DNA of 14,021 bases from Fidelibacterota bacterium (GTDB lineage Bacteria > Fidelibacterota > Marinisomatia > Marinisomatales > S15-B10). Numbering within the stretch: position 1 is the stretch's first letter; each line of letters starts with the position of its first letter. The translations under genes were made by a program, and so were the position numbers. Below are positions 1,639 through 11,755 of this stretch, in pieces. Where the stretch lies: positions 49,263 through 63,283 of the forward strand of contig PBTS01000026.1 in the NCBI GenBank assembly GCA_002729175.1, in the 5' to 3' direction. A model generated the notes under the pieces. That model was given only the letters and a program-made list of their open reading frames with translations. It had not been told where the DNA came from and did no database searches.

Positions 1639-1992
1639 CTATTTTAAAAGTTCAAGCACTTTTTCCGGAGGCCGGCCCAAAACAGCCCGCTGGTCACTGA
1701 CTGCAATAGGTCGCTCCATCAGTTTGGGGTGCTTGGCCATGGTACTGAACAGGGAGCCATCATCTTCAAACGAGTCTTTCAGGTTGAGTGCTTTAAACTC
1801 GGCCTCGCCTTTCCGGATAAACTGATTTGGTCTAAGACCCATCATTCCCGCCAGGGATCGTAACATCGATTCATCGGCAGGATTCTTTAAATATTCGATG
1901 ATCTCCGGTTCAACTCCGTTTTCCCTGAGAAGCTGCACGGCTTCCCGGCTTTTTCGTCAACGGGGATTATGATAAAGTGTGATCTTACTCAT
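1639..1992 (-). CDS. arsC: ArsC-family (glutaredoxin-type arsenate reductase/YfgD-like) protein with selenocysteine at residue 12; 117 aa
   Basis: ATG at 1992 has GGGAG 9 nt upstream. It reads MSKITLYHNPR-TGA(1959-1957)-RKSREAVQLLRENGVEPEIIEYLKNP..., in frame with track ORF 1639..1938. The HNPxCxxSR motif has TGA at the Cys position. The conserved arginines are retained in FIRKGE, LMERPI and LGRPPE. Confidence 0.9.
1924..1948 (-). promoter_or_regulatory. Putative bacterial SECIS element within the arsC coding sequence
   Basis: The mRNA after UGA reads CGAAAAAG-CCGGGAAGC-CGUGCA-GCUUCUCAGG. GGGAAGC pairs with GCUUCUC (one G-U pair), and CC/GG extends the stem across a bulged A. The 6-nt loop has G at its second position and is separated from the UGA by 17 nt. 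Confidence 0.7.
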
Positions 1993-8460: not shown

Positions 8461-9300
8461 ATGAAAATATATTTTCTTGCTTCTGAAATTACACCTTTTT
8501 CTCAGACATCCTTCCTTGCAACTTTTTGTAAAAACGTTCCAATCAAACTTCAACAATACGGTCACGACATCAGGCTCACTTCCCCGAAGTACGGGTATAT
8601 CAGTGAACGCAAATATACTCTTCGAGAGGTAATTCGGCTCAGAGAGATCGAATCAGAGATTGGTGGTGTGACCGAAGTTGCTTCCGCAAAATCAGCTTTT
8701 ATTCCAAAGACAAGAGTCCAAGTTTACTTTATGGAACATGCTGACTGGTTTCAACCATTAACAACACTTCTCTATAAATCGAAGAACGGCCGAGCGCTTT
8801 CAGATAATGATGATCGGTTCGGTTTCTACAGCAAAATAGCGCTCGAAATGCTGGTGAATCTTTTTTGGTCGCCTGACATCATAATCTGTAATGATTGGCA
8901 ATCGTCTTTTGTCCCGATCCTTTACAAACAGCTTTTTGCCAATCAGGAATTCTATAAGAATATCAAGACGGTTCAGCTTATTCACACCATTAATGAGTAT
9001 ACCAAAGTGTCAAAATCATCCTTCGAAAAACTGGGTGTGGAATTGCCAAAAGAGTTTGCAGGAGATTCACTCAATTGTCTTTCGGTCGCTGCTACAAACG
9101 CAGATCTGGTCATTGCTGTAGACGGTCCTAATTCCAAGATTTCGAAGGAACTTTCGAGCCATGCAGACTTTAAACCCCATATTGCTGGCATAAAGAAGAA
9201 ACTCAAAACAATAAATCTAAAGAACGAAGATGAAGCTTCAGTTGAATCAACCGCTGACGGTATTAATAAGATTCTTCAAGAGGCTTTTGGCTCCGCATAA
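8461..9300 (+). CDS. Short glycogen/starch synthase-like protein (Glyco_transf_5 N-terminal domain only, degenerate KTGGL motif)
   Basis: MKIYFLASEITPF, GHDIRLTSPKYG, DNDDRFGFYS, PDIIICNDWQS and LIHT match the GlgA N-terminal domain. It is only 279 aa with a clean stop, and GGAGA lies upstream of the start. Confidence 0.8.
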   Translation: MKIYFLASEITPFSQTSFLATFCKNVPIKLQQYGHDIRLTSPKYGYISERKYTLREVIRLREIESEIGGVTEVASAKSAFIPKTRVQVYFMEHADWFQPLTTLLYKSKNGRALSDNDDRFGFYSKIALEMLVNLFWSPDIIICNDWQSSFVPILYKQLFANQEFYKNIKTVQLIHTINEYTKVSKSSFEKLGVELPKEFAGDSLNCLSVAATNADLVIAVDGPNSKISKELSSHADFKPHIAGIKKKLKTINLKNEDEASVESTADGINKILQEAFGSA

Positions 9301-9339: not shown

Positions 9340-10575
9340 ATGAATCATTTCGGCTCAAGATTTTTCTGCACCATTGTTTCATTATTCCTCATTTCCTGTG
9401 AGAATGAAGCCTTTCTCATAAATCTGGATGATGCTCCGCTGCAGTCTCAGGTAGCTTCAACGACCTCTTTTCAGTTTAAGACATACCAGGTGCCGCCAAC
9501 CCTTGGAGGACTACACAGCATCTATGCGGGACGTAACGAACAATTTGATGCCTCCCGGACACTTTTGGAATTTGAGTCTCACACCATTTTGAACTGGGCA
9601 AACTTCGAAATAGATAGTGGCTATTTCCAGTTGACACTGGACAGCACCTTCTCCGGCAATATTCCGGAAATAAGTACAATCACTATGGGTTATTTCAGGC
9701 GTGATTCCAATTATGTGGAACTGGGATCTAACTACACCAATGTTGACTGGATTTCTGACGATTACCCAAGGCTTTCCTCCAAATTTTCCAGTGACACCAC
9801 AGGACTGATGCACCTTCGGTTCCCCATCGATTCCGCATTGGTCAAAACGCTGGGAGATACGGCAGAAGGGAGTTGGCTCTATTTACTAGAGTTACCTGAA
9901 GAATCTGATTTCATCCTGAAATTTTATTCCTCTGACAGTCCGATCCACGGCCCAATTCTGAGAACATTCATGCATAAAGCAACAGATGACTCAGATACCT
10001 CAGCAACAGTTGTTGACTCGACCCGTGTTTTCAATGGTCAGTCGGATGTAACACTTTTTATTCCACCCAATCTGGAGAACAGTCTTTTTGATTCAAACTA
10101 CAGTTACATTGGCGTTGCTGCGGGTTTGGTGACTGTTGTGAAGGCCGATTTGACTTCCATGAATATTCCTAAGAAGGCATCCGTGGGGCGAGCCAAGCTG
10201 ATACTCACCATGGATGAGGCTCACAGCTCAGCCGGGGCGCTCGATTCACTGTTTATCCAAGCTTACGCGATGGAAGACACTATCACCAACTGGAGTTGGG
10301 GGGAAGAGCTGAATGAAGATATTTACGATCATCACACTGCCTCCATTGCCAAGTCTTCTTCAGCTGCACCAATTGGATCAATATTAAAACTTGATGTGAC
10401 CGATTTGCTTCAGTCTCTTATCAGTGAGAGAGAGGTCGAGGATAAAACTATTGTAAATCTAGGTTTCAAGCTGAAGATGATCAATTCAGGATCGATTTTC
10501 GATTATGCGGCCATACGTTCAGACAGTTCAGCACTGGGGCAACCGTTGCTTGAGATTTATTATGAAATTCCGTAG
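9340..10575 (+). CDS. Lipoprotein of 411 aa, possibly DUF4270/BamH-like
   Basis: Lipoprotein signal with lipobox LISC (Cys20). The mature part is acidic and beta-rich with several DS/DT motifs. The family guess rests on its position after a short GlgA-like gene and on general composition, not on a search. Confidence 0.55.
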   Translation: MNHFGSRFFCTIVSLFLISCENEAFLINLDDAPLQSQVASTTSFQFKTYQVPPTLGGLHSIYAGRNEQFDASRTLLEFESHTILNWANFEIDSGYFQLTLDSTFSGNIPEISTITMGYFRRDSNYVELGSNYTNVDWISDDYPRLSSKFSSDTTGLMHLRFPIDSALVKTLGDTAEGSWLYLLELPEESDFILKFYSSDSPIHGPILRTFMHKATDDSDTSATVVDSTRVFNGQSDVTLFIPPNLENSLFDSNYSYIGVAAGLVTVVKADLTSMNIPKKASVGRAKLILTMDEAHSSAGALDSLFIQAYAMEDTITNWSWGEELNEDIYDHHTASIAKSSSAAPIGSILKLDVTDLLQSLISEREVEDKTIVNLGFKLKMINSGSIFDYAAIRSDSSALGQPLLEIYYEIP

Positions 10576-11755
10576 TCTTTTCTTTCTACTGTTTTCCGTT
10601 TCTCTGACGGCTCAAACGCCCTACAATGCTATAGGTCACGGGATTATTCTAGACAGCCCGGATGCGGCCAGTCTTGCTTTTTCCAGTACCGGACTAATCC
10701 CTTCTTTCAACAGCCGTTTTTCATCGTCCAATCCGACAACATGGACCGATCTCGTCTTTACTTACCTCACAGGCCATTACAATGCAGAAGAAGTGAACAC
10801 CGGTAGTTTCCGCTCCGGATTAGGTACTCTATCAACTGCTGCTTTCATTGTTCCCATAAATGGAAAATATGCTTTTGGAATGGGGATGACACCGATATCT
10901 CGTAAATCCTTTGATTTGATGGGGGATACCACTTCAGTAGTCTTTTCCGGGGATACGCTTACCCTTTCAAAAACAATGGACGGTTCGGGTGGTATCAGCA
11001 CAATGTTTGCAGGCGGTGCGTGGAACGTTTCACCAAAACATACCGTCGGGATTAGATTCGATTTTCTCTTTGGTGTTTACGATGAACATACTGTCAGCCA
11101 CATAGACTATCGATCATCCGAATATGCCAGGAGATTTGCCTACAAAGGAACCTTTCTGTCGGGCTATTACCGTTTTGTGCCGACACCTGAAAAGCGGCGT
11201 TTGTCGGCGTTTGCAGGTTTTCAATTACCCTTTGGTAGTCAATATATCGCAAGAACTGATTTTTTCACATATGTTGAATCAGATCTCCAACCCAGAATGG
11301 ATTTTGTTTTACCCACTACTTTGAGCGGTGGATTGATATACAGCCTTTCGTCATCAATTCATGCCGGTGCTGAGCTGGTCATCAGATCTTTTGGCTCCTC
11401 TGAGGCAGACAATTTGAATACGCTCGATGGTGAAATGGGTAGAGCTAATAGAATCAGCATTGGACTGACACGTGAAAAGATCTTTGGTTCCAGAGATATT
11501 ATGAACATGTTTCACTACCGGGTTGGATTTTTCCGAAGATCACACTACATTCGCGAGCTTGGAAATGACCTGACTGAGATGGGGTTATCCTTTGGTATTG
11601 GTGTTCCTTTCGGATTGACTCAAAATCAACTGGATTTCGGTTTCAGGATTTCGGGGAGAAGTGGATTCCTTTCCGATAGTCCTGAAACGATAAATCAGTT
11701 TTCTGTTGGGCTAACTCTTGGTGACCTGTGGTTGGTAAAAGGTAAGAGGAGATAA
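10562..11755 (+). CDS. Outer-membrane beta-barrel protein, FadL/OmpP1-like, possibly BamG-like
   Basis: The better start is ATG 10562 (MKFRSLFFLLFSVSLTA-QTPYNAIGHG, a signal peptide) rather than 10505. It has a FadL-type NPxxW motif (SNPTTW), alternating amphipathic strands (FGMGMTP, VGIRFDFLFG, YRVGFF, LSFGIGVP, FSVGLTL) and a basic tail WLVKGKRR. Confidence 0.7.
   Translation: MKFRSLFFLLFSVSLTAQTPYNAIGHGIILDSPDAASLAFSSTGLIPSFNSRFSSSNPTTWTDLVFTYLTGHYNAEEVNTGSFRSGLGTLSTAAFIVPINGKYAFGMGMTPISRKSFDLMGDTTSVVFSGDTLTLSKTMDGSGGISTMFAGGAWNVSPKHTVGIRFDFLFGVYDEHTVSHIDYRSSEYARRFAYKGTFLSGYYRFVPTPEKRRLSAFAGFQLPFGSQYIARTDFFTYVESDLQPRMDFVLPTTLSGGLIYSLSSSIHAGAELVIRSFGSSEADNLNTLDGEMGRANRISIGLTREKIFGSRDIMNMFHYRVGFFRRSHYIRELGNDLTEMGLSFGIGVPFGLTQNQLDFGFRISGRSGFLSDSPETINQFSVGLTLGDLWLVKGKRR

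Follow-up and report, generated by a model that had tools for sequence, protein, structure and literature searches.

A probable selenocysteine-containing ArsC-family reductase, encoded through an in-frame UGA codon, in Marinimicrobia (SAR406)

The gene and its in-frame TGA

The window, meaning the whole stretch of DNA that was analysed, is 14,021 nucleotides long. It contains an aldehyde dehydrogenase gene at 3-1481 and, further along, a divergent mreB-mreC-mreD-mrdA-rodA cluster. Between these lies a small gene, on the same strand as the aldehyde dehydrogenase gene that follows it downstream. Standard gene calling recovers only part of this small gene: under translation table 11, the list of open reading frames at the locus holds solely a 99-aa ORF with a GTG start.

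An earlier note on this DNA held that this ORF lacks the ArsC active site, and that the same frame continues upstream through one TGA to an ATG with a Shine-Dalgarno sequence. Both statements are correct. The 99-aa product would miss the whole active-site loop, and the TGA, the ATG and the Shine-Dalgarno-like sequence are all found where the note had placed them. The features of the locus are as follows.

1992-1639, minus strand: full coding sequence of a 117-aa ArsC-family reductase, predicted to contain selenocysteine (Sec); ATG at 1992-1990, stop TAG at 1641-1639
2006-2002, minus strand: Shine-Dalgarno-like GGGAG, 9 nt 5' of ATG 1992, read from the sequence and with a presumed function
1959-1957, minus strand: UGA codon 12, probably read as Sec at the place of the catalytic Cys12; U-R-K-S forms the UxxS motif
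1946-1927, minus strand: bSECIS-like hairpin, with stem 1946-1940/1933-1927 (GGGAAGC/GCUUCUC) and loop CGUGCA at 1939-1934
1639-1938, minus strand: 99-aa ORF of standard gene calling; its start, GTG 1938-1936, is Val19 of the 117-aa protein
1813-1815, minus strand: Arg60 codon, aligned with Arg60 of R773 ArsC
1711-1713, minus strand: Arg94 codon, aligned with Arg94 of R773 ArsC
1672-1674, minus strand: Arg107 codon, aligned with Arg107 of R773 ArsC

Read on the minus strand from 1992, the gene begins ATG AGT AAG ATC ACA CTT TAT CAT AAT CCC CGT TGA CGA AAA AGC CGG. If TGA is translated as U, this gives MSKITLYHNPRURKSREAVQLL... and a protein of 117 residues. The frame has no TGG codons. It also has no TGC or TGT codons, which means that residue 12 is the sole residue that can bear a thiol or a selenol.

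The note had further placed the TGA, as codon 12, at Cys12 of ArsC, with three arginine motifs intact. This agrees with alignments to the structures of R773 ArsC (1I9D/1JZW): the UGA codon is aligned with Cys12, and each of Arg60, Arg94 and Arg107 with the arginine of the same number. In the structural literature on ArsC, these three arginines are the catalytic and anion-binding triad. It is very likely that the gene encodes a small arsenate-reductase-type enzyme in which the catalytic Cys is replaced by Sec at the in-frame UGA.

Such proteins are not new, as the note had also said. In the consulted parts of the 2005 Sargasso Sea survey, 'arsenate reductase' with a UXXS motif (COG1393) figures as a new selenoprotein family with 14 sequences, and its predicted SECIS is shown (PMC1088965). 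Those of the 2008 GOS survey give 77 Sec and 784 Cys sequences for 'Arsenate reductase'/'ArsC 1' (PMC2398784). Excerpts from reviews of 2022 and 2026 carry the family under COG1393/TIGR00014, with a GenBank example (PMC9312934, PMC13188914), and an excerpt on Deltaproteobacteria has ArsC-like selenoproteins (PMC1794560).

The likeness to this Sargasso/GOS family (COG1393, pfam03960, TIGR00014) extends to the family itself, to UxxS with Sec at the catalytic Cys, to the marine origin and to a SECIS hairpin directly downstream with a G in its apical loop. There is no difference in kind from what these excerpts describe, the comparison being one by description. The gene is real and unannotated, and belongs to an already known selenoprotein family; what is known of selenoproteins does not change in kind. 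Given that the UxxS ArsC family has been known since 2005, the call is correct and also an ordinary one. Among the titles and abstracts listed for Marinimicrobia and selenocysteine, none concerns this protein. To judge by the 2026 review, no Sec form of ArsC appears to have been characterised yet.

Evidence that the UGA is read as selenocysteine

A TGA that is private to one assembly would point to a nonsense mutation. This is not the situation here. In a sample of the phylum, 99 of 301 genomes matched the protein at E <= 1e-15, giving 100 match rows; counted by hand, 75 of these have one in-frame TGA and 25 have none. A match was also found in 28 of the 41 related genomes, and in 21 of these 28 it has exactly one in-frame TGA. 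One of the seven matches without TGA (in G007) covers residues 66-116 only, and is uninformative on codon 12.

The codon-12 column was read by tblastn in the 34 fetched loci, which are 55-99% identical to the query. It holds TGA in 24 and TGC/TGT in 10, in the context YHNPR[*/C]xKSR. TGA and Cys therefore share a single column, as the note expected of orthologues, and the arrangement is conserved across genera and families. The closest genome contig matches (98%, 91% and 69% identity) are from Candidatus Neomarinimicrobiota/Marinimicrobia. After these, identity drops to about 50-56%, and the matches are Cys forms from Pseudomonas, Thiohalobacter, Thiodiazotropha and others.

The codons before the TGA are equally informative. 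The Arg codon directly in front of it is kept in 24/24 Sec loci, and is spelled in five ways (CGT, CGC, CGG, AGA, AGG). Tyr-5 and Asn-3 are likewise kept in all 24, each with both of its synonymous codons, and in every one of these loci an ATG stands in frame, 10-12 codons ahead of the TGA. Judging by this pattern of substitutions, the codons 5' of the TGA are under coding constraint, beyond chance. These features are what the test for a bacterial selenoprotein looks for, namely a UGA in the Cys column of homologues and coding sequence that is conserved before and after it.

The codon was also compared with contigs from independent sequencing runs, all of them seawater or marine metagenomes; the run flagged as a possible source was left out. 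Contigs from two DNA and two RNA-library runs, belonging to four studies, span the gene and show no difference at 1957-1959, so the codon that the note wanted checked in raw reads is the same in these DNA and RNA-library contigs. These contigs differ from the window at 1534, 1585, 1863 and 1915 only. The differences at 1863 and 1915 are inside the gene, a third-position and a first-position change between them, and are read as synonymous (Gly26, Leu44). Taken together, the conservation of the TGA, the constraint upstream of it and the independent contigs exclude a private nonsense mutation or an assembly error.

Directly after the UGA, a hairpin can be drawn that the earlier note did not have. 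Its 7-bp stem starts 10 nt after the UGA, and there is a G in the apical loop. In this genome two additional C-G pairs, beyond a bulged A, lengthen the stem to 1948-1925. The apical loop also contains, as GUG, the GTG at 1938 from which gene callers start the 99-aa ORF. Bacterial SECIS elements (bSECIS) follow spacing rules of about 11 nt to the stem and 16-37 nt to the loop.

Support for the hairpin is comparative, since the single-sequence fold does not rise above shuffles: the 86-nt MFE fold of the window is no better than these (z = 0.76), with the centroid still showing the hairpin. When the 24 Sec loci are aligned without gaps, standard pairs are formed in 93.5% of cells, versus 30-62.5% if the 3' partner is slid by 1-3 columns. 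None of 500 shuffles reached the observed pairing or covariation score. Compensatory changes occur at two pairs, with G19:C28 becoming U:A in 5/24 sequences and A17:U30 becoming C:G in 2/24. Where G:C has become U:A, the amino acids encoded on both sides differ as well (Ser for Ala, Ile for Leu), which means that the pairing is kept at the cost of a change in the protein. In the loop, none of the 24 sequences departs from U23 and G24.

The Cys loci provide a natural comparison. In the Sec loci 157/168 stem cells are paired, versus 35/70 in the 10 Cys loci, and the mean local MFE is -9.0 kcal/mol versus -4.0. RNAalifold on the 24 sequences keeps only the inner 4 pairs, at a weak energy (-1.74 kcal/mol); the full 7-bp stem was assessed by explicit pair counting. 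On this comparative footing, a conserved bSECIS-like hairpin follows the UGA. It has the stem-loop just 3' of the UGA and the G in a small apical loop that the Sargasso Sea paper describes in the part consulted (PMC1088965), and 3 of the 24 loci do not fit.

These three Sec loci (L127, L129 and L130, of family f9) form only 3-4 of the 7 pairs in the 48 nt from the TGA, so another structure must serve there. This could be a separate SECIS, or these loci could stem from an independent change from Cys to Sec. A maximum likelihood protein tree was made from 38 rows, namely the 34 loci and the database Cys proteins P0007, P0008, P0013 and P0020; the Sec site was entered as X. In this tree the 21 Sec forms with the standard hairpin are one group (support 89/86). 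The other three adjoin the Cys form L125 (95/90), apart from those 21. The tree needs at least two changes between Sec and Cys; with a weakly supported backbone (33/45 at the base) and an arbitrary midpoint root, it allows no claim on their direction.

Scans of the sequence around the gene gave little else. An Rfam scan of the window at gathering thresholds had no matches, which carries no weight either way. Over 1400-2250 no promoter was found, and a terminator-like match there is the SECIS hairpin as read on the plus strand.

Selenocysteine also requires dedicated machinery, and the note had proposed a search for selA, selB, selC and selD. All four are in the genome, over their cut-offs. The scores are 452.5 bits for selA and 345.1 bits for selB, which are adjacent on contig C31 and have frames of 458 and 647 aa without internal stops, and 388.5 bits for selD. 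The tRNA-Sec, with anticodon tca, scores 63.8 bits on RF01852 and is confirmed by ARAGORN.

The genome is a metagenome-assembled one, 93% complete and 7.1% contaminated, and its sel genes sit on contigs other than that of the ArsC gene. Because of the contamination, selA was also checked in relatives. Of the 41 relatives, 37 have it over the cut-off. Those with the TGA form number 21, and 19 of these are among the 37; the other two, G003 and G006, are 91-92% complete and have no selA over the cut-off. The gene is also present in all seven genomes with a match that has no TGA, so the presence of selA does not separate Sec from Cys carriers.

Some observations on these genomes stand by themselves. 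The selD gene is itself that of a selenoprotein, with one in-frame TGA in its N-terminal GxGU-ACK motif (L001:1480-2532, plus strand, contig C56 of the genome, G000). The assembly has ambiguity letters at scattered positions, seen as X in the translations of L001 and L132 (contigs C56 and C19). Two relatives of about 1 Mb, G025 and G039 (family f12, genus g17; 98-99% complete), have neither selA over the cut-off nor ArsC, and ArsC is found in 0 of the 30 f12 genomes in the phylum sample. The f12 lineage may have lost both.

The TGA could be taken at face value, as a stop. The 99-aa product from GTG 1938 would then be real, or the gene a pseudogene, or the codon an assembly or sequencing error. 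Table 11, which yields just the 99-aa ORF, speaks for this, as do the 99-aa public calls of the nearest relatives. Yet a stop of this kind would be present in 75 of 100 phylum matches and aligned with Cys in the rest. Ahead of it would be 11 codons that vary synonymously while the protein stays conserved, and in each of the 24 loci an ATG, and the product would be without its active-site loop. It would also have turned up in four independent runs. Conservation and these runs contradict the pseudogene, the sequencing error and the 99-aa product, which were rejected; their joint chance is minimal.

Another possibility is that the UGA is decoded as a standard amino acid, be it Trp or Gly under a reassigned code, or Cys or Trp by near-cognate read-through. 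There are indeed two public records, P0005 and P0006, that are translated with W at the codon-12 position. The note had claimed that there is no genome-wide reassignment of UGA, and the genome agrees. In the window, TGA is the stop codon of mreD, mrdA and rodA; none of the 11 genes besides the ArsC one is interrupted by an in-frame TGA, and Trp is written TGG in them, 2-8 times per gene. There are no internal stops in selA and selB either. A W or G in place of the catalytic nucleophile would moreover inactivate the enzyme, and neither the full Sec machinery nor the SECIS-like hairpin fits such a decoding. Code reassignment was rejected on the stops, the TGG codons, the machinery and the hairpin, and decoding as any standard amino acid is extremely improbable. 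The reading of UGA as Sec, which the note had proposed, agrees with all of this: the TGA/Cys alignment, selABCD, the independent contigs, the standard code and the hairpin.

Family, mechanism and possible substrate

Profile and structure comparisons were made with Cys in place of Sec. The protein belongs to the glutaredoxin-type ArsC family, with a profile score over the cut-off, the nucleophile at position 12 and the Arg triad all present. TIGR00014, the equivalog model for arsenate reductase (glutaredoxin), scores 127.8 bits against a cut-off of 106.05, with residues 4-116 on model positions 1-114. PF03960 (ArsC) scores 61.8 bits against a cut-off of 24. The strict E. coli/R773 ArsC model NF007456 reaches 84.6 bits out of the 242 needed, and TIGR01617 (Spx/MgsR) 51.2 bits versus 75.05, the motif being UxxS and not CxxC; the protein falls in neither of these two groups.

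Among PDB entries matched over the full length, 3F0I comes first (E=3e-27, 98.1 bits), followed by 3RDW (7e-27, 97.1 bits). R773 ArsC (1I9D/1JZW; 5e-21 for 1I9D, 78.3 bits) stands behind these two short homologues. With 119-121 aa, these two (3F0I titled 'arsenate reductase', 3RDW 'putative arsenate reductase') are of the same length class as the marine protein and its best matches among solved structures. Their YHNP(K/R)CSKSRE aligns to YHNPRURKSRE here, the two structures using Cys. To our knowledge their physiological role is not established, and none of the titles and abstracts listed for YfgD and arsenate reductase deals with function.

R773/E. coli ArsC is alike over residues 1-116, with nucleophile 12 and Arg60, Arg94 and Arg107 in register and a single catalytic chalcogen residue in both. 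The marine protein differs in having Sec for Cys12, in lying outside any ars operon and in failing NF007456. It also has 117 aa and not 141, which means that the C-terminal tail is absent. A further relative is the 'Arsenate reductase 2'/ArsC-like UxxC selenoprotein (cd03032, NF041106), with the Spx/MgsR branch. The ArsC/Spx superfamily fold is common to both, and as far as the excerpts on it go, the 'Arsenate reductase 2' branch also has a Sec form. That branch has a dithiol-type motif, UxxC or CxxC, whereas the marine protein has UxxS and no Cys at all.

A mechanism can be put together from these parts. UGA codon 12 would be decoded as Sec in a 117-residue ArsC-family reductase with a glutaredoxin fold, from a marine bacterium of the Marinimicrobia (SAR406). 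The hairpin 10 nt past the UGA would act as a bacterial SECIS and recruit SelB with Sec-tRNA(Sec), as made by SelA and SelD of the same genome (SelD being a selenoprotein). From the sequence, then, we infer selenium at codon 12. The selenol would stand at the Cys12 place, within the HNPxU-xxSR loop and among Arg60, Arg94 and Arg107. R773 ArsC serves as the analogy for the chemistry: the selenolate would attack arsenate, or some related oxyanion or electrophile, and a Se-As intermediate would result.

A low-molecular-weight thiol together with glutaredoxin would then resolve this intermediate; these reductants, too, are suggested by analogy. As possible reductants, the genome has an 80-aa dithiol glutaredoxin (CSYC) and a CGFS monothiol glutaredoxin. 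It also has two homologues of GCS2-type glutamate-cysteine ligase. E. coli-type gshA was not found in the genome, and gshB is over the cut-off neither there nor in any of the 41 related genomes.

Arsenate is somewhat favoured as the physiological substrate, by analogy with the known enzymes. The main alternative competes with this functional part of the explanation only. It accepts the ArsC-fold selenoprotein as real and has it act as a housekeeping selenol reductase for another oxyanion, an electrophile or a mixed disulfide, with no link to arsenic resistance. It has a lesser yet considerable chance of being right.

Much of what speaks for this other role lies in the genomic context. No arsenite pump was found in the genome or beside arsC, which sets the gene apart from a canonical ars resistance system. 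ACR3 was not found in the 93%-complete genome. Neither was ArsB (PF02040, TIGR00935), a weak negative because both models are silent in the E. coli control too. Across the related genomes ACR3 is over the cut-off in 2/21 with the TGA form, 2/7 with a match without TGA and 4/13 without this ArsC; these genomes are related to one another and not independent samples, which makes the counts descriptive and not a statistical test. In the 34 loci the neighbour is mreB in 17, and an ars gene in none.

The failure of NF007456 and the fact that the best PDB matches are short ones, with 3RDW titled merely 'putative arsenate reductase', also suit a role other than arsenate reduction. The 2026 review, in the part consulted, calls the functions of such selenoproteins largely uncharacterised (PMC13188914).

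Against such a role, the protein passes an equivalog model for arsenate reductase and keeps all four catalytic positions of R773 ArsC. Arsenite could leave the cell by aquaglyceroporin, by MFS-type exporters or through methylation. Arsenate in seawater is, in addition, a plausible substrate.

A broader proposal for SAR406/Marinimicrobia is at least conceivable, and is put forward as tentative and rather doubtful. It holds that the Sec ArsC is the normal form in this lineage and works outside the classical ars system, with neither pump nor operon. It would be either a highly efficient selenol enzyme, tuned to the nanomolar seawater arsenate taken in along with phosphate, or a reductase with some other substrate entirely. 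If this were true, the second Sec clade (L127, L129, L130) would mark an independent Cys-to-Sec conversion or the replacement of a SECIS.

Annotation and the surrounding sequence

The note had warned that gene callers would truncate this gene, and that is what the databases contain. Each of its nearest relatives there (P0002, P0003, P0004 and P0016) has 99 aa and starts past the TGA. The public records P0005 and P0006 of close relatives have Trp at the TGA site instead (YHNPRWKKSR), and appear to have been translated under a code in which TGA is Trp. The gene is systematically miscalled: either the record has 99 aa and no active site, or Trp stands in place of Sec. This means that inventories of arsenic and selenium genes in an abundant ocean lineage are wrong for this gene.

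Several things are added to what was known. The UxxS ArsC selenoprotein family is now linked to Marinimicrobia (SAR406), where the Sec form predominates (75/100 matches). The hairpin gains comparative and covariation support, a second Sec clade with a different downstream structure comes into view, and most carriers turn out to be without a recognisable arsenite pump. In addition, the loci are a natural series of Sec and Cys forms, with SECIS-present and SECIS-absent sequences, which is suited to biochemical comparison.

The RNA-library contigs cover the gene, which is as far as they go, given that contigs cannot show expression level, strand or ends. One of them, X15 (record 1), covers 1400-2013; its end is 21 nt 5' of the ATG, with adapter-like letters after it. 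Another contig starts at 2017. The end of X15 at 2013 is a weak hint of an mRNA 5' end.

Elsewhere in the window, on the plus strand, there are ORFs of 411 and 416 aa at 9340-10575 and 10505-11755, which overlap by about 70 nt and have no Pfam match at E <= 1e-5. Also on the plus strand, a 279-aa ORF at 8461-9300 consists of a Glyco_transf_5 (starch synthase catalytic) domain alone, which is short for a glycogen synthase.
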